DNA of 64,000 nt from positions 34,623 through 98,622 of the forward strand of contig CAZETE010000001.1 in assembly GCA_964515075.1 (NCBI GenBank). The letters are read 5' to 3'. A program made the translations under genes and the position numbers. Shown in pieces: positions 5,323-61,356 of this stretch. The first letter of the stretch is position 1. Each line of letters opens with the position of its first letter. Below the pieces are notes generated by a model that saw only the letters and a program-made list of their open reading frames with translations, was not told the DNA's origin and ran no database searches. This DNA is from an uncultured Actinomycetota bacterium (GTDB lineage: Bacteria; Actinomycetota; Geothermincolia; Geothermincolales; Geothermincolaceae).

Positions 5323-6050
5323 TCCCCCTCTGGGACCGCAATCCCGCCCGGCGCCTTCCCCTGGTGACCGCGGCCCTGATCCTGGCCAACCTGGCCGTCT
5401 TCCTCTACATGCTGACCTTGAGCCCCTCGGGGCTGGAGACCTTCATCTGCCGCTTCGCGGCCGTGCCCCGGGAGATCTGCAGCGGGCGGCAGCTCCCGGC
5501 CCCGGAGGCGGCGCAGCTGCTCCCGCTGGCAGACCCGGGCATGGTCAAGAACGTCTACCTGGCCCTTGTGACCTGCATGTTCCTGCATTCGGGCTGGCTG
5601 CACCTCCTCTTCAACCTGCTGTTTCTGGCGGTCTTCGGCAACAACGTGGAGGACGCCATGGGGCACCTTGCCTACCTGCTCTTCTACCTGCTCTGCGGGG
5701 TGGCCGCCACCGTGCTGCACGCGGCGGTCTATCCGCAGAGCGCCGCTCCGCTGGTGGGGGCCTCGGGCGCCATCGCCGGGGTGATGGGTTCCTACCTGCT
5801 GCTCTATCCGCGCGCCCGCATCGTCGCCCTGGCCTTCTTCCTGGTCCTGCCCGTTCCGGCCTGGGCCTTCATCGGGGCCTGGGCGGCCTGCCAGTTCCTG
5901 GCGGCCCTGGCCTCGCGGGGCGGCGCGGCGGGGAACGTGGCCTGGTTCGCGCACGCCGGAGGGATGGCCTGCGGGGTGGCGGCGACGCTGGCGTTCTACC
6001 CGCTGCTCAAGGGGAGGCGCGGGCGGCGCGGAGGCCGCGAGGAGGGATGA
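5319..6050 (+). CDS. rhomboid family intramembrane serine protease
   Basis: The ATG at 5319 overlaps the HAD stop (ATGA). Six TM segments; GASGAIAG (GxSG catalytic serine) and a later conserved His (AHAGGMACG). Confidence 0.8.
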   Translation: MIPLWDRNPARRLPLVTAALILANLAVFLYMLTLSPSGLETFICRFAAVPREICSGRQLPAPEAAQLLPLADPGMVKNVYLALVTCMFLHSGWLHLLFNLLFLAVFGNNVEDAMGHLAYLLFYLLCGVAATVLHAAVYPQSAAPLVGASGAIAGVMGSYLLLYPRARIVALAFFLVLPVPAWAFIGAWAACQFLAALASRGGAAGNVAWFAHAGGMACGVAATLAFYPLLKGRRGRRGGREEG

Positions 6051-21684: not shown

Positions 21685-22812
21685 GTGGGAAGGGACCCGC
21701 TGGTGGAGTTGTTCCTCAAGCTCGTCTCCATCGACAGCGAATCCTTCAAGGAGGGCGAAGCGGCCCGGTTCGTCGTCGATCTGCTGCAGGGCTGGGGGGT
21801 GAAGGTGGGACGGGACAGGGCCGGAAGGGCCATCGGCTCCGACGCGGACAACCTCTACGTCAAGCTGCCGTCGCGCGTCAAGGCACCGCCGCTCCTGCTC
21901 AGCGCCCACCTGGACACGGTCTCCCCCGGCAGCGGCGTCAGGCCGGTGGTGGGAAGACGGACCATCCGCAGCGCCGGACGGACCGTGCTGGGGGCCGACG
22001 ACAAGGCCGGCGTGGCCATCATCCTGGACATCCTGCGCGACGCGGCGGAAGGCCGCCTGCGGGCCGGGCCGCTGGAGGCGCTGTTCTCCATCGCCGAGGA
22101 GGAAGGGGTCCTGGGGATCAGGCACGCGCGGCTGGGGAGGCTCAAGGCCCGCCAGGCCCTGGTGCTGGACGGAACCGGAGAGGCCGGGGTCATCGTCAAT
22201 GCCGCACCCGCCCACGACGTCCTGGACTTCGTCTTCCGCGGCCGGCGGGCCCACGCCGGAGTGGAGCCGGAGAAGGGGGTGAACGCCATCTCCGGCGCCG
22301 CGCGGGCCGTGGCCCGCATGAAGCTGGGGAGGCTGGACGCCGAGACCACCGCCAACATCGGTATCATCGAGGGCGGCTGCGCCACCAACATCGTGCCCGA
22401 AGAGGTGAGGGTCAGGGGGGAGGTCCGTTCACGCAATCCCGCGAAGCTCGAAAGGCAGCGGGAGAGGATGATCGAGGCGGCCCGCGCGGTCGAGGAAGAG
22501 GGCCTGGAGGTCGAGGTGCGGGTGGAGCGGGCCTACGAGGGCTACTTGGTTCCGGCCTCCGACCCCCTGGTGCGGACGATCAAGCGTGCCGGGGCGGCCG
22601 AGGGCCTGCGGATGCGCGTGCGCCCTTCGGGCGGCGGCAGCGACGCCAACTTCCTCAACGCCAGCGGGATCAGGGCGGTGGTGCTGAACACCGGCGCCTA
22701 CGAGCCCCACTCGGAGCGGGAGTACCTGGACCTGGCGGAGTTCAAGCGCTCCTCCGCCGTCTGCAGGCGGGTGGTGGAGATGTTCGCCGGAACGGGAGGA
22801 GGGGCGGCGTGA
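21685..22812 (+). CDS. M20/M42 family metallohydrolase (peptidase T / tripeptidase-like)
   Basis: GTG at 21685 after GGGGAGGG. A TTG at 21658, overlapping the pyrG stop, is an alternative start. M20 metal-binding motifs SAHLDTV, GADDKAG and EEEG are present. Confidence 0.75.
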   Translation: MGRDPLVELFLKLVSIDSESFKEGEAARFVVDLLQGWGVKVGRDRAGRAIGSDADNLYVKLPSRVKAPPLLLSAHLDTVSPGSGVRPVVGRRTIRSAGRTVLGADDKAGVAIILDILRDAAEGRLRAGPLEALFSIAEEEGVLGIRHARLGRLKARQALVLDGTGEAGVIVNAAPAHDVLDFVFRGRRAHAGVEPEKGVNAISGAARAVARMKLGRLDAETTANIGIIEGGCATNIVPEEVRVRGEVRSRNPAKLERQRERMIEAARAVEEEGLEVEVRVERAYEGYLVPASDPLVRTIKRAGAAEGLRMRVRPSGGGSDANFLNASGIRAVVLNTGAYEPHSEREYLDLAEFKRSSAVCRRVVEMFAGTGGGAA

Positions 22813-23375
22813 CCGCGGCGAAGGACACCGGCGGCTACCGGACCCTCTCCAGCCGGGCGCTCTTCGAGGGGGCGGTGGTCCGGCTCTTCCTGGACCGGGT
22901 GCGCCAGCCCGACGGCAAGGCGGTGGAGCGCGAGGTGGTGCGCCACTGGGGGGCGGTGGGGGTGGTGGCGCTGGACGACGCGGGGAGGCTCTACATGGTG
23001 AAGCAGTACCGGCACGCCCCCGGGGAGGTGCTGCACGAGATACCCGCGGGAAAACTGCTGCCGGGGGAGGATCCCCTGGACTGCGCGGCGCGCGAACTTG
23101 AAGAGGAGGTGGGGGCGAAGGCCTCTCGCTGGTCCCCCCTCTGCAGCTTCTACACCTCGCCCGGCTTCTCCGACGAGGTGCTCCATCTCTACCTGGCGGA
23201 GGACCTGACGGAAGGGGAGCCTCGCCCGGAGGAGGACGAGTTCCTGGAGGTCTACAGGGTGGACCTGGAAGAGGCGCTGCGCATGGTCTGGCGGGGCGAG
23301 GTACGCGACTCCAAGACCATCGCCGGCATCGCCCTGACATTTGTAAAATTGGGGTCAGGCCCCAAATCCACTTGA
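22809..23375 (+). CDS. NUDIX hydrolase (ADP-ribose pyrophosphatase-like)
   Basis: Nudix box GKLLPGEDPLDCAARELEEEVG. The last 11 codons plus the stop are encoded by REP copy 1. Confidence 0.8.
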   Translation: MTAAKDTGGYRTLSSRALFEGAVVRLFLDRVRQPDGKAVEREVVRHWGAVGVVALDDAGRLYMVKQYRHAPGEVLHEIPAGKLLPGEDPLDCAARELEEEVGAKASRWSPLCSFYTSPGFSDEVLHLYLAEDLTEGEPRPEEDEFLEVYRVDLEEALRMVWRGEVRDSKTIAGIALTFVKLGSGPKST

Positions 23376-23379
23376 CCGT
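23341..23379 (+). repeat. REP-like hairpin element, copy 1 (core GGGGTCAGGCCCC)
   Basis: TTGTAAAATTGGGGTCAGGCCCCAAATCCACTTGACCGT. Imperfect palindrome AATTGGGG-tcagg-CCCCAAATT. A near-identical 39-nt copy lies 56 nt downstream. Confidence 0.7.
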
Positions 23380-23396: not shown

Positions 23397-23435
23397 TTGT
23401 TAAATTGGGGTCAGGCCCCAAATCCACTTGACCGT
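23397..23435 (+). repeat. REP-like hairpin element, copy 2 (direct repeat of 23341-23379)
   Basis: TTGTTAAATTGGGGTCAGGCCCCAAATCCACTTGACCGT; 38 of 39 nt identical to copy 1. Confidence 0.7.
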
Positions 23436-23493: not shown

Positions 23494-24600
23494 TTGAGAT
23501 TAGGGGTACCGAAGGAAGTGATGGACCACGAGTTCCGTGTCGGGCTGACGCCGCATGGGACTCGCGAGTTGGTGAACCAGGGCCACACGGTGCTGTTGGA
23601 GACGGGGGCGGGCGAGGGCTCGGGGTTCTCCGACGAGGAATACGTCAACGCGGGGGCCTCCCTGTGCGGGGAAGCCGGCGACCTCTACGCGGAGTCGGAG
23701 CTGATCGTCAAGGTGAAGGAGCCTCAGCCCGAAGAGTTCGGGATGCTGAGAGAAGGGCTGATGCTCTTCTGCTACCTGCACCTGGCGGCCCATCGCGAGG
23801 TGACCGAGGAATTGATGTGCAGGGGGGTGACCGCCGTAGGCTACGAGACCGTCGAGGAGAACGGCGAACTGCCCCTGCTGGCGCCCATGAGCGAGGTGGC
23901 CGGGCGCCTGTCGCCGCAGATCGGGGCGCATTACCTGGAGAAGCAGAACGGCGGGAGGGGCGTCCTGCTCAGCGGCACCACCGGTGTGGCGCCGGCGGAA
24001 GTGGTGGTGCTGGGGGCGGGCATGGTGGGCTTCAACGCAGCGATCATGGCCACCGGCATGGAGGCCCGCGTGATCGTGCTGGACCGGGACTTGAAGAAGC
24101 TCAAGTACCTCGAGAACAACCTGCAGGGGCGCATCTCCACCCTCTTCTCAAATCAATACAACGTCGCGGAGGCCGTTGCCCAGGCCGACCTGGTCATCGG
24201 GGGACTGCTGGTTCCCGGGGCACTGGCGCCGCGCGTTCTGACCGAGTGGATGGTAAGGGAGATGCAGCCCGGCGCGGTCTTCGTGGACGTCTCCATTGAC
24301 CAGGGAGGCTGCTCGGAGACTTCCCGGCAGACCACCCACTCGGAACCGGTCTATACGATGCACGGCGTCACCCACTACTGTGTCGGGAATATCCCGGCAG
24401 CGGTTCCCCGGACCTCCACGTTCGCCTTGACCAACTCCACCCTGCCCTACGTGGAGCGCCTGGCGGGCCTGGGGTTGGAAGAGGCCTGCCGGCGGTACCC
24501 GGGGATGTGCTCGGGAGTCAATGTCATGGGCGGCGCGGTCACCTCCCGGCCGGTGGCGGATTCGCTGGGTCTGGAATGCCGTCCGCTCGAGCAGAAGTGA
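23494..24600 (+). CDS. ald: alanine dehydrogenase
   Basis: TTG start after AAGGAGGGA. NAD-binding motif VVVLGAGMVG; full-length AlaDH/PNT family. Confidence 0.9.
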   Translation: MRLGVPKEVMDHEFRVGLTPHGTRELVNQGHTVLLETGAGEGSGFSDEEYVNAGASLCGEAGDLYAESELIVKVKEPQPEEFGMLREGLMLFCYLHLAAHREVTEELMCRGVTAVGYETVEENGELPLLAPMSEVAGRLSPQIGAHYLEKQNGGRGVLLSGTTGVAPAEVVVLGAGMVGFNAAIMATGMEARVIVLDRDLKKLKYLENNLQGRISTLFSNQYNVAEAVAQADLVIGGLLVPGALAPRVLTEWMVREMQPGAVFVDVSIDQGGCSETSRQTTHSEPVYTMHGVTHYCVGNIPAAVPRTSTFALTNSTLPYVERLAGLGLEEACRRYPGMCSGVNVMGGAVTSRPVADSLGLECRPLEQK

Positions 24601-24622
24601 ATTGGGGTCAGGCCCCGAATTC
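24599..24622 (+). repeat. REP-like hairpin, forward orientation, overlapping the ald stop codon
   Basis: GAATTGGGGTCAGGCCCCGAATTC. Confidence 0.7.
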
Positions 24623-24659
24623 ATTTTCGCAGCTGAGAACCGGTGGCCGAGAAAAAGGT

Positions 24660-24684
24660 GAATTTGGGGCCTGACCCCGAATTG
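24660..24684 (-). repeat. REP-like hairpin, inverted orientation (forms a BIME-like inverted pair with 24599-24622)
   Basis: GAATTTGGGGCCTGACCCCGAATTG. Loop CCTGA is the reverse complement of TCAGG. The two units are separated by 37 nt. Confidence 0.7.
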
Positions 24685-40066: not shown

Positions 40067-41401
40067 TTGCTGCCCCTGGTGGCCGTAGTCGGCCGTCCCA
40101 ACGTGGGCAAGTCCACCCTGGTCAACCGGATCATCTCCAGCCGCGAGGCCATCGTGCAGGAGGAGCCCGGGGTGACCCGCGACCGCAACTACTACGTCGC
40201 CGAATGGCGCGGACGCCGCTTCGGCCTGGTGGACACCGGGGGGCTGGACCCGGGGGCCCGCGACGAACTGACGGCCGGGATGGGGGAGCAGGCCCGCTAC
40301 GCGGTCCGGGAGGCCGACCTGGTGCTGCTGACGGTGGACGCCCGGGACGGGCTGACCGCGGCGGACGAGGAGGTGGCGGAGATCCTGCGGGGCCTGGACC
40401 GCCCCATCATCCTGGTGGTCAACAAGGTGGACAACCCCCGGCGCGAGGAGGCGCTGACCGCCGACTTCCACCGCGCCGGCTTCCCGCTAACCGTGGCCGT
40501 ATCCGCCCTGCACGGCCTGGGAGTGGGAGAACTTTTGGACGAGGTGGCGGAGGCCCTCCCCCCCAAGTCCCCGGAGGAGGAGGAGGAATCGGGCGAGAGG
40601 CCCCTGACCGTGGCCATCGTCGGCCGTCCCAACGTGGGCAAGTCGTCCCTCTTCAACCGCCTCGTGGGGCAGGACCGTTCGCTCATCCACGACCAGCCGG
40701 GCACCACCCGCGACAGCGTGGACATCCGCGTGGAGATGGGCGGGCAGCCGGTGACCTTCGTGGACACCGCCGGCTGGCGGCGCCGGTCGCGCATCGTAAG
40801 CGAGGTGGAGTACTTCTCGGTGGTGCGCCTATGGAGGACCCTGGACCGCGCCGACGTGGCCCTGCTGCTCATCGACGCCACCGAGGGGGTGACCGACCAG
40901 GACCAGCGCATCGCCGCTCGCATCCGCGACGACGGGCTGGCCTCCGTGGTCGTCCTCAACAAGTGGGACCTGGCCAGGGAGGGCGAACGGGCGCGCGAGC
41001 TGGTGGAGGACGCCCGGGAGGACCTGGAATTCATCGCCTACTCGCCCATCCTGCGCGCCAGCGCGCTGACCGGCTGGGGGACGGATAAGATCATGCCCGA
41101 GGTGATGCGGGCCCACGCCAACTGGCGGCAGCGCATCCAGACCTCCCACCTCAACCGGTTGAAGGAGGAGCTCATCCTGCGCACCCCGCCTCCCTCCAGG
41201 CGCGGCAAGCAGCTGCAGATCTACTACATCACCCAGGTCCGCAGCGCCCCGCCGGAGTTCGTCTTCTTCGTCAACGACCGCGGACTGGCCCGCCCGGAGT
41301 ACCACCGCTTCCTGGAGCGGCGCATCCGCGAGACCTTCGACTTCACCGGCACCCCGGTGCGGGTGGCCCTCAAGGGCAAAAAATCCGGGGTCAGGCCCTG
41401 A
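40067..41401 (+). CDS. der: ribosome biogenesis GTPase Der (EngA)
   Basis: Two G domains (GRPNVGKST and GRPNVGKSS; DTGG/DTAG; NKxD) and a KH-like C-terminus. The final 6 codons plus stop lie inside the left REP/TIR. Confidence 0.9.
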   Translation: MLPLVAVVGRPNVGKSTLVNRIISSREAIVQEEPGVTRDRNYYVAEWRGRRFGLVDTGGLDPGARDELTAGMGEQARYAVREADLVLLTVDARDGLTAADEEVAEILRGLDRPIILVVNKVDNPRREEALTADFHRAGFPLTVAVSALHGLGVGELLDEVAEALPPKSPEEEEESGERPLTVAIVGRPNVGKSSLFNRLVGQDRSLIHDQPGTTRDSVDIRVEMGGQPVTFVDTAGWRRRSRIVSEVEYFSVVRLWRTLDRADVALLLIDATEGVTDQDQRIAARIRDDGLASVVVLNKWDLAREGERARELVEDAREDLEFIAYSPILRASALTGWGTDKIMPEVMRAHANWRQRIQTSHLNRLKEELILRTPPPSRRGKQLQIYYITQVRSAPPEFVFFVNDRGLARPEYHRFLERRIRETFDFTGTPVRVALKGKKSGVRP

Positions 41402-41467
41402 CGGGAATTGACGAAACCTGCGATAACCCGGGAGAGGGCATCCGGGAAAGTCGCCCCCGGGATTAAA

Positions 41468-41496
41468 TTGACATATAATATAAGTTATATATAATA
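41468..41496 (+). promoter_or_regulatory. sigma70-like promoter of the RAYT gene (TTGACA - 17 nt - ATAATA), predicted leaderless transcript
   Basis: -35 TTGACA at 41468-41473; -10 ATAATA at 41491-41496. Both are AT-rich islands in GC-rich DNA. The -10 abuts ATG 41497, and the second ATG at 41503 sits at the expected +1. Confidence 0.5.
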
Positions 41497-42495
41497 ATGA
41501 ACATGACTCGACCGCTGCGCATCGAGAAGAGGGAAGCCTTCTATCACGTCATCACCAGGGGGAACCGGGGTGACGATATCTTTGCCAATGACGGGGACAA
41601 GCTCTATTTCCTCGACCACCTTGGCAGAGCCGCCACAAAGTACAGCGCAGTCTTCTACGCGTATTGCCTCATGAGCAATCATTATCACCTGCTCATCGAG
41701 ACGAAAGAGCCCAACCTCTCCTCGGTCATGCATTATATCAACTCCTCTTTTGCCTCCCATTTGAGGAAGGGCAGGGAAGTGGGGCACATCTTCGCCGGAC
41801 GCTACAAGTCCATCCTTGCCGAAAAGGGAGAAAGCATAGCCCCCCTCAGCCGGTACGTGCACCTGAACCCGGTCAGGGCCTCGCTGACGGCGATGCCAGA
41901 AGAATACCACTGGTCCAGTTATCGTTATTTCGTTGAGAGGGGCGCAGTTCCGGGCTGGCTCGATACTTCTTGGCTGGTGGGGTCGTTCGGAGGAACGCTC
42001 GAGGCTGCCAGGAAACGCTACCGAGACTACGTCGAGAACGGAACCTTCGAGGAGTTCTCCTTCGAGCTAGACTGCCGGCAAGCGGGAAGAGAGCCGGTAG
42101 CCGGCAGCGTGGAGCGGGAAGCCCCCGGAAAGGAGGAACGGGCCAGGGAGGGCCTTCCGCCAGTGGGTCCCCCCGGAGGTAGTTTCGTCAAGCCCGTACG
42201 GTTGAGCGACCTGCATACGGCCGCCTGTTCGTTCTATTCACTGGAAAGGCTCGACGGAGAAGGCGGTGGGCTGGACGGGTACTGCAGGCGGGCACGGAAC
42301 ATGTTCATCTGGCTCGCGCGGGAATATACCGCTGCGCAGAACTGCGAGATAGGGAATTACGCGGGAGGGCTCAGCAGTTCCGGCATAACCCAGCAGTTCC
42401 TGCGCACCAACGAGGCGTTGAAGCGGGGGAAGGAATGTCCGGATAGATGGCGCCACGAAGCCCAAGCGATTCTGTCAATTCTCGTCAGGGCCTGA
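41497..42495 (+). CDS. REP-associated tyrosine transposase (RAYT; IS200/IS605-family Y1 HuH transposase-like)
   Basis: YHVITRGNRGDDIF, HuH motif AYCLMSNHYHLLIE, GRYKSIL and YVHLNPV are typical of TnpA-REP. Length 332 aa. The stop lies inside the right TIR. The true start may be ATG 41503 (leaderless). Confidence 0.8.
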   Translation: MNMTRPLRIEKREAFYHVITRGNRGDDIFANDGDKLYFLDHLGRAATKYSAVFYAYCLMSNHYHLLIETKEPNLSSVMHYINSSFASHLRKGREVGHIFAGRYKSILAEKGESIAPLSRYVHLNPVRASLTAMPEEYHWSSYRYFVERGAVPGWLDTSWLVGSFGGTLEAARKRYRDYVENGTFEEFSFELDCRQAGREPVAGSVEREAPGKEERAREGLPPVGPPGGSFVKPVRLSDLHTAACSFYSLERLDGEGGGLDGYCRRARNMFIWLAREYTAAQNCEIGNYAGGLSSSGITQQFLRTNEALKRGKECPDRWRHEAQAILSILVRA

Positions 42496-42506
42496 CCCCG
42501 GATTGG

Positions 42507-61278: not shown

Positions 61279-61356
61279 TGGTCGGGACGAGAGGATTTGA
61301 ACCTCCGACCTCTGGACCCCCAGTCCAGCGCGCTAACCAAGCTGCGCTACGTCCCG
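61279..61356 (-). tRNA. tRNA-Pro (anticodon GGG), genomically encoded CCA
   Basis: Manual fold: acceptor CGGGACG/CGTCCCG; D-stem GCGC/GCGC; anticodon stem CTGGA/TCCAG with loop CTGGGGG (G37 is typical for Pro); T-arm GGAGG-TTCAAAT-CCTCT; discriminator A; CCA. Confidence 0.85.

Follow-up and report, generated by a model that had tools for sequence, protein, structure and literature searches.

The closest described relatives of the system discussed here are the REP palindromes of bacterial genomes and the tyrosine transposases that accompany them. [quoted passage not shown] The same authors described RAYT-like genes, named TIRYTs, that lie between inverted repeats sharing the sequence GGGGWSAS and that display overlaps on the transposase gene, designated 3'ov (PMC3733652). 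TIRYTs form subclass 2.1 of the HuH transposases and carry a DnaA_C-like domain (Quentin et al. 2018; PMC6006769), and REPs are also found immediately after the stop codons of rayt genes (Nunvar et al. 2010; PMC2817692). A phenomenon of the present type, comprising REP-supplied stop codons and REPs at ORF C-termini, is thus already known in kind (PMC3733652). The present case differs in its host, in its head sequence, which is devoid of GTAG, and in offering a set of orthologous junctions that are either filled or empty.

The case comes from a 64-kb stretch of DNA (hereafter, the window; 68% GC) from an uncultured Actinomycetota lineage in the neighbourhood of the Geothermincolia and "Solincola". 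Our reading, to which we assign a probability of roughly 0.8, is that the window carries a REPtron/TIRtron, that its repeats supply the C-terminal tails of a NUDIX protein and of the GTPase Der together with the stop codon of ald, and that, at the transposase gene, the overlap between gene and repeat is a feature apart, of ancestral origin. A more distant parallel is provided by the Rickettsia palindromic elements (RPEs), which enter genes in frame, lengthening the encoded proteins by internal peptide segments. To our knowledge, RPEs have no dedicated transposase. These and other MITE-like repeats resemble the window repeats in that a mobile palindrome is translated within a host protein without destroying it, but the repeats of the window affect only the extreme C-terminus and the stop codon. 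RPEs are likewise mentioned in PMC3733652.

The transposase gene (41497..42495, plus strand), present as one copy in the 64 kb, encodes a Y1 (HUH) tyrosine transposase of the RAYT/TIRYT kind of 332 aa. Residues 15-122 match the Pfam family Y1_Tnp (E = 1.3e-9), the IS200-like catalytic domain, and both the H62-Y63-H64 (HUH) motif and the tyrosine motif S118-R119-Y120-x-H-L-N-P-V-R-A are invariant in an alignment of 10 sequences. The NCBIfam model REP_Tyr_transpos (NF047646) is covered over its whole profile (4-146 of 146) at 60.2 bits against a cut-off of 80; the enzyme would be a member of a related subclass and not a canonical RAYT. Its C-terminal region matches Bac_DnaA_C at 16.7 bits (E = 0.0078), and that of the homolog P0243 at 26.6 bits (6e-6), each below the Pfam cut-off of 31.5. 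Homologs are approximately 320 aa in length, are often labelled RayT or transposase by their sources, and in many instances bear a precomputed PF08299 assignment, while a search of PDB sequences with the transposase returned no meaningful match. Directly before the ORF lies a predicted sigma-70-type promoter (TTGACA-16-TATAAT; 41468..41495, plus strand) that matches the consensus at 12 of 12 positions and ends 1 nt before the first ATG. The second ATG, at 41503, aligns with the starts of the homologs and is the probable true start of the gene, and the placement of the promoter relative to this codon suggests a leaderless transposase mRNA.

The gene is enclosed by two inverted repeats of 31 nt with a single mismatch between them. 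The left repeat (AATCCGGGGTCAGGCCCTGACGGGAATTGAC; 41382..41412, plus strand) encodes the end of der, and the right repeat (42474..42504, minus strand) encodes the transposase C-terminus, ...SILVRA, and its stop codon. The last codons of the gene read ctc gtc agg gcc tga, and the TGA (42493-42495) is situated within the right repeat, just as the preliminary description of this DNA had stated. The sequence GGGGTCAG is present in both repeats and fits GGGG[AT][CG]A[CG], that is, GGGGWSAS; the transposase TGA corresponds to the TCA in GGGGTCAG read on the opposite strand. This arrangement recurs among 37 distant homolog loci, namely metagenome loci with clear terminal inverted repeats (TIRs) of the form GGGGTCAG...TTGAC and its variants. 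The GGGGWSAS motif occurs in the TIRs of 18 of these, with close variants (GGGGTCGC, GGGTCACA) in most others, and the transposase stop is found within the right TIR, in a conserved CTGACCCC end, at 32 of the 37 loci. The C-termini of the homologs are conserved as well (ILSI[FV][KR]G, followed by the stop). Because the C-terminus is conserved and the stop lies inside the right TIR at so many loci, the overlap is an ancestral, family-wide part of the right repeat and not the product of an insertion. It is here that a contrary proposal has its best footing, namely that the repeats evolved from gene ends, or that ORF calling or assembly produced the overlaps as artefacts: in the transposase gene, conserved C-terminal residues are encoded by the right repeat, as though gene end and repeat were co-evolving.

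A sister genome contains a homolog (L018:4495-5500, minus strand) that is 46% identical over the catalytic domain and is split across at least two frames, representing either a pseudogene or assembly indels. It is flanked by the dispersed REP type, and its TGA lies in the right REP. The right flank is a fully palindromic variant, GGGGTCTGACCCC, and the homolog is preceded by an AT-rich block (about 5500-5540) similar to that found before the transposase gene of the window.

The inverted copies that flank the transposase gene belong to a repeat that is dispersed in the genome, with four further core copies in the window. The system resembles the described TIRtrons in its Y1 HUH transposase of ~320-330 aa, in inverted repeats that start with GGGGTCAG, in a putative C-terminal helix-turn-helix-like region (the DnaA_C match of the window protein being sub-threshold), in repeats that are also dispersed as singles or dimers, and in the 3'ov type of overlap with the 3' end of the transposase gene. 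It is unlike them in its host, an uncultured Actinomycetota lineage mentioned in neither PMC3733652 nor PMC6006769, and in its dispersed copies (AAATTGGGGTCAGGCCCCAAAT), which have diverged from the transposase's own repeats (AATCCGGGGTCAGGCCCTGAC). With the GTAG REPs, REPINs and RAYTs of E. coli, Pseudomonas and Stenotrophomonas, the system shares short palindromes, often arranged as inverted doublets, downstream of co-directional or convergent genes, as well as repeats that flank a tyrosine transposase gene, which in the window may likewise be single and vertically inherited. Further shared features are copies that encode C-terminal residues and a head that gives the flanking ORF its stop codon, which is the TAG of GTAG in those systems and the TAA or TGA of CT[A/G]AATTT in this one. 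Unlike those systems, that of the window has no GTAG head, and its transposase, twice the length of theirs, scores under the RAYT equivalog cut-off. Judged by these sequence features, the system would be a TIRtron/REPtron composed of a TIRYT-type transposase (subclass 2.1) and GGGGWSAS-type repeats, an assignment that would extend REP/TIRYT systems to an uncultured group of Actinomycetota.

The core of the repeat, GGGGTCAGGCCC, occurs in the window as six copies at three loci. The 13-mer core is thus counted 6 times against 0.97 expected from shuffles of the window, and the 32-mer AAATTGGGGTCAGGCCCCAAATCCACTTGACC, found exactly at 23346-23377 and again at 23402-23433, has an expectation of 0 in the shuffles. 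The four orphan copies, of a related short palindrome, comprise one direct pair and one inverted pair. The direct pair, R1 (23341..23379, plus strand; family-conserved part ~23346-23372) and R2 (23397..23435, plus strand), is identical at 38 of 39 positions and does not constitute a REPIN; R1 covers the TGA of the NUDIX gene and the 7-10 codons before it, and R2 is intergenic between this gene and ald. The inverted pair, R3 (about 24599..24623, plus strand) and R4 (about 24658..24684, minus strand), forms a REPIN-like doublet between ald and a xerD-like gene, R4 ending a few bases before the ribosome-binding site of the latter. With a palindrome bearing a 7-bp stem and an inverted doublet that forms a long hairpin, the family conforms to the REP/REPIN type, and the tetranucleotide GTAG, sought at the repeat end as the mark of the GTAG-REP superfamily, is absent from the head consensus of 29 units. 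An Rfam search of the window detected no RNA family at the repeats, its sole match being a tRNA gene (61282-61356, minus strand). In the REP-free relative L038, the two spacers that correspond to those occupied by the repeats measure 36 and 18 nt, part of each being the ribosome-binding site of the downstream gene, and their equivalents in the window measure 118 and 98 nt; the repeats would, in essence, create the spacers that they occupy.

The NUDIX gene (ADP-ribose pyrophosphatase-like; 22809..23375, plus strand) ends with aaa ttg ggg tca ggc ccc aaa tcc act tga, encoding a REP-derived tail. If the element starts at ~23346, as given by copy-to-copy alignment, the TGA (23373-23375) and ~9 codons lie inside R1. 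The left boundary of R1 is ambiguous, as the KL codons ahead of the core match the native KL of the REP-free relative L001 codon for codon, and the REP-derived part may be just 7 codons; the residues that are clearly foreign are GSGPKST, with the stop, and these only. The preliminary description had assigned the last 11 codons and the TGA to this copy. The TGA is indeed inside R1, but the count is not sustained, with 10 residues having been listed, 9 being indicated by copy alignment and 7 by orthologs.

Comparison of the NUDIX-ald junction across the window and the relatives L001, L002, L037 and L038 reveals how variable this gene end has been. In the two relatives with no REP at the junction, the protein ends with ILKLRGA (L001, 82% identical) or ALRMRERR (L038, 73%), and distant orthologs have a native ...LxLRGxY... 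tail in common. The window protein ends with FVKLGSGPKST inside R1, that of L002 (80%) ends with KLNLGSGKSGVRP, encoded by a REP remnant that is followed by a copy of the transposase-repeat type, and that of L037 (77%) ends with SRKTPFGVRPQSE, read in another REP frame at an inverted doublet, with its TAA in the right arm of the REP. Because the native tails of REP-free orthologs differ, the repeat-encoded residues of NUDIX, and of Der as presented below, are replacements, and at least two independent events have struck the junction. Strain variants of the window NUDIX protein differ by 2-3 residues, one of which lies in the 8-residue REP-encoded tail at codon 186 (23367-23369; GPKST versus GPEST), and this variation suggests weak constraint on the tail.

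A native remnant downstream of the repeats of the window was sought, and none was recognised with confidence. Between R1 and R2, GTGCGCGAA resembles ATGCGCGAA of L038, and ACTGAAATTG resembles the L001 tail. As a displaced remnant of the native NUDIX end, this spacer is suggestive and ambiguous at once, because ACTGAAATTG is also a variant of the REP head. In L001 (6556-6630), an unrelated long palindromic repeat (gtcattgcgaggagcgcagcgacgaagcaatc ... gatcgcttcgctatcgctcgcgatgac) follows the NUDIX stop in place of the GGGGTCAGGCCCC repeat. In L002 (2295-2338), two REP cores lie 16 nt apart (ctggggtcagg taaatcc ggggtcaggccctga), and the contig ends 7 nt past the stop.

A comparable end is found at der (EngA GTPase; 40067..41401, plus strand). 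The gene closes with aaa aaa tcc ggg gtc agg ccc tga, and its TGA and last 5-6 codons, (K)SGVRP, are contained in the left inverted repeat at 41382-41412, which agrees with the earlier placement of six codons and the stop in this repeat. The Pfam KH_dom-like domain closes at residue 436 of the 444 in Der. Among the closest orthologs, which are 75-83% identical, the protein ends with LKGKKKRPPR, KKKRPK, KKKRT or KKKRA, as against LKGKKSGVRP in the window, and the der-plsY spacers of L003 and L004 contain neither repeat nor transposase. The window tail is thereby a repeat-encoded replacement of 5-6 residues. In the contig with the 83%-identical Der, this spacer (L003:4541-5148) is occupied instead by a toxin-antitoxin-like pair made up of a small ORF and a gene with a PIN domain.

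The order der-RAYT-plsY is also found in L039, the transposase of which is 99% identical, and in a JGI contig (Der 82% and RAYT 61% identical) in which Der, at the protein level, ends with KKKRPK; this recurrence fits vertical inheritance of the arrangement. In L039 (9880-9976, equivalent to window 41376-41470) the TGA of the left repeat reads GGA, and Der is extended by 23 residues to 467 aa, ending with ...SGVRPGRELAKPAITREGASGNWAPGLN. The assembly has a coverage of just 3.5x and GGA for TGA could be an error, and the variant, taken as it stands, indicates that repeat-supplied stops can be lost.

For both proteins, then, alignment with REP-free orthologs reveals native tails (KKKR-type in Der; ILKLRGA or ALRMRERR in NUDIX) that are not encoded by repeats, and the replacement of C-termini envisaged in the preliminary description is upheld in these two cases. 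It does not extend to the transposase, the end of which is conserved and ancestral, nor to ald, in which the stop codon alone is affected. Beyond the window, the idea generalises to the REP tails of L002 and L037, to the TAA stops of a sister genome, and to the homolog loci of the transposase, of which, by mechanical ORF calls, 19 have a co-directional ORF upstream, with 7 of these 19 ORFs terminating within the left TIR.

These comparisons weigh heavily on the proposal that the repeats derive from gene ends or that the overlaps are artefacts. The native NUDIX tail of L001 (ACTGAAACTG) does resemble the REP head variant ACTGAAATTG. Against this, the REP-free orthologs of both NUDIX and Der end differently, and the same repeat is present at unrelated loci in many genomes. 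The NUDIX and Der tails of the window recur identically in independent NCBI, Logan and ENA assemblies, and the overlaps are therefore not an assembly artefact. P0103, a distant NUDIX ortholog ending with KGVRPGDL, was considered as a fourth REP tail and rejected, its "GVRP" being encoded by ggc gtc cgt cca, which is not the DNA of the repeat. The proposal thus seems largely refuted for NUDIX, Der and ald, stands for the transposase gene only, and as a general account is highly improbable.

At ald (alanine dehydrogenase; 23494..24600, plus strand), the overlap is minimal. The G and A (24599-24600) of its TGA (24598-24600) open the R3 head, GAATT followed by GGGGTCAGGCCCC, so that the earlier view of this TGA as the first bases of the REP is correct for these two letters, but the T falls outside R3 (24599-24623). 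The stop codon alone is common to gene and repeat, with no codons replaced. In the sister genome, the orthologous ald-xerD doublet is present, and the ald stop is a TAA 11 nt before the core.

This doublet provides the main argument for a selected function, by which the hairpins would be kept at stop codons for their effects on mRNA, whether through stabilisation of 3' ends, termination or attenuation between the genes of an operon, or a slowing of terminating ribosomes that tunes the upstream gene. Work by Liang, Rudd and Deutscher in 2015 reportedly found that E. coli REPs within ~15 nt of stop codons tune the expression of the upstream gene. R3 and R4 fold together into one long and very stable hairpin (24602-24680; -51.7 kcal/mol, z = -6.5) that extends from 2 nt past the ald stop to just before the next ribosome-binding site, and the window and the sister genome, at ~82% protein identity, have each kept the ald-xerD doublet. 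It has also been argued that REPs between co-directional or convergent ORFs are transcribed and act post-transcriptionally (PMC3733652). Single copies, on the other hand, form a hairpin (TTGGGGTCAGGCCCCAA) with a stem of 6-7 bp that is no better than shuffled sequence (z about -1), and the terminator search gave one weak terminator-like match only. Repeats are patchily present at the same junctions among close relatives, and the GPKST/GPEST variation together with the stop loss in the TIR of L039 suggests weak constraint. Selection for such effects is, on balance, a doubtful explanation for the overlaps.

The relation between repeats and stop codons was pursued further with an exact-pattern 19-mer REP scan of GTDB representative genomes, a set that does not include the source genome. 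Single exact 19-mer matches in many unrelated phyla were treated as chance or as distant family members and were not used. In the sister MAG CAWFDJ01 (the L001 genome; ~82% protein identity), REPs are located at 12 loci, mostly as inverted doublets, amounting to about 20 units in an assembly that may contain indel errors. A survey of REP copies for overlap with the 3' ends of coding sequences, also raised in the preliminary description for the whole genome, was run on this sister genome. All eight high-GC3 genes that end at most 25 nt from a REP core stop at a TAA in or just before the head, compared with 12 of 66 other genes (Fisher p = 8.4e-6). Five of the eight TAA stops are at -7 from the core (TAAATTTGGGG), one is at -6 and two are at -11. 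L014 offers a further instance, in which an incomplete third ORF of 88 aa, cut off by the end of the locus, lies across the doublet from the other gene and likewise terminates at a TAA 11 nt before the core, in symmetric position; it fell under the length filter and was left out of the eight.

The head that precedes GGGG has, over 29 units, the consensus C-T-[A/C/G]-A-A-[T/A]-T-T, and 17 of the 29 show a stop triplet at position -7 or -6. Around REPs, the worst-frame distance to a stop has a median of 71 nt compared with 684 nt for random window positions, a difference confounded by neighbouring genes. Such regularity might reflect targeted insertion, in which the transposase inserts 3' of a short AT-rich target that at 68% GC would be almost only stop codons (T[A/G]A); the head-adjacent stop triplet would then belong to the target and not to the element, and the overlaps would result from target choice and not from selection among survivors. 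Insertion adjacent to a target is well established for IS200/IS605 elements. The phasing is fixed, with the sister-genome TAA at -7 in five genes, at -6 in one and at -11 in three, 23 of the 29 units have a T at position -7, with -6 being either A or C, and different lineages have REPs at one and the same NUDIX-ald junction. However, the 3' arms are the complement (AAATT[T/C]A) of the T[A/G]AATTT head, and the stop triplet therefore belongs to the palindrome itself. Stop triplets are also carried by heads at which no gene terminates (R2, the second copy of L001 and the first copy of L026), NUDIX and Der are translated across head and core in other frames, and no empty site was found by which to define a target. 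Heads that face a gene 3' end contain stops in 11 of 13 cases and other heads in 9 of 16, which is not a significant difference. Targeted insertion is an unlikely account of the overlaps.

A related and tentative thought, which we consider improbable as it stands, is that the stop triplets, both the T[A/G]A of the head and the TGA of the CTGACCCC end, constitute the context of an insertion target or cleavage site, or a selected "stop-armoured" design. If this were so, the element could colonise the only free space of compact GC-rich genomes, the stops of housekeeping genes would be systematically supplied by elements, with C-terminal tails turning over repeatedly at hot-spot junctions, and transposase expression could become tied to repeat structure through translation termination within the repeat.

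The preferred reading is that of a REPtron/TIRtron whose repeats supply these gene ends. By analogy with RAYT and IS200/IS605 enzymes, the transposase would mobilise the repeats as single-stranded DNA. Gene spacers in the lineage are tiny (18-36 nt in the REP-free relative), and persisting copies would be mainly those lodged right at gene 3' ends because hardly any space would be free elsewhere in the genome. These positions would be made tolerable by the edges of the repeat, which are AT-rich and bear stops (a T[A/G]A some ~6-7 nt before the core, a TGA that in the TIR variant directly follows the core, and a TGA in ..TTGAC), as a gene with its native stop displaced, deleted or mutated would be terminated within a few codons inside the repeat. 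The resulting NUDIX and Der tails, situated past the conserved domains, look neutral. Insertion into the last codons would lead to the same end state as insertion beside the native stop with stop loss or a small deletion thereafter. The earlier statement that REPs insert into 3' coding ends consequently holds insofar as stops lie in or against repeats, but not as a description of the route, as the stop loss in L039 illustrates. No empty-site allele was found in a near-identical strain.

Repeats regarded as "extragenic" can by such means rewrite the last residues and the stop codons of essential genes such as der, and in this lineage they have done so repeatedly at one junction. Annotators of GC-rich MAGs may expect repeat-derived tails (…GVRP, …GSGP) and unusual TAA stops, and the filled and empty orthologous junctions described here form a clean set for studies of how such elements choose, or survive at, their sites. 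Contigs of the relatives also tend to break at the repeats, those of L002 and L037 ending at or near REPs, and breaks that are induced by repeats would fall exactly at gene ends. Finally, a MAG of the Thermoanaerobaculia (L005:1100-1330) contains a tandem array of GGGGTCAGGCCCCGAATT-like units with a period of 17-19 nt, in which the same core is displayed in a quite different arrangement.
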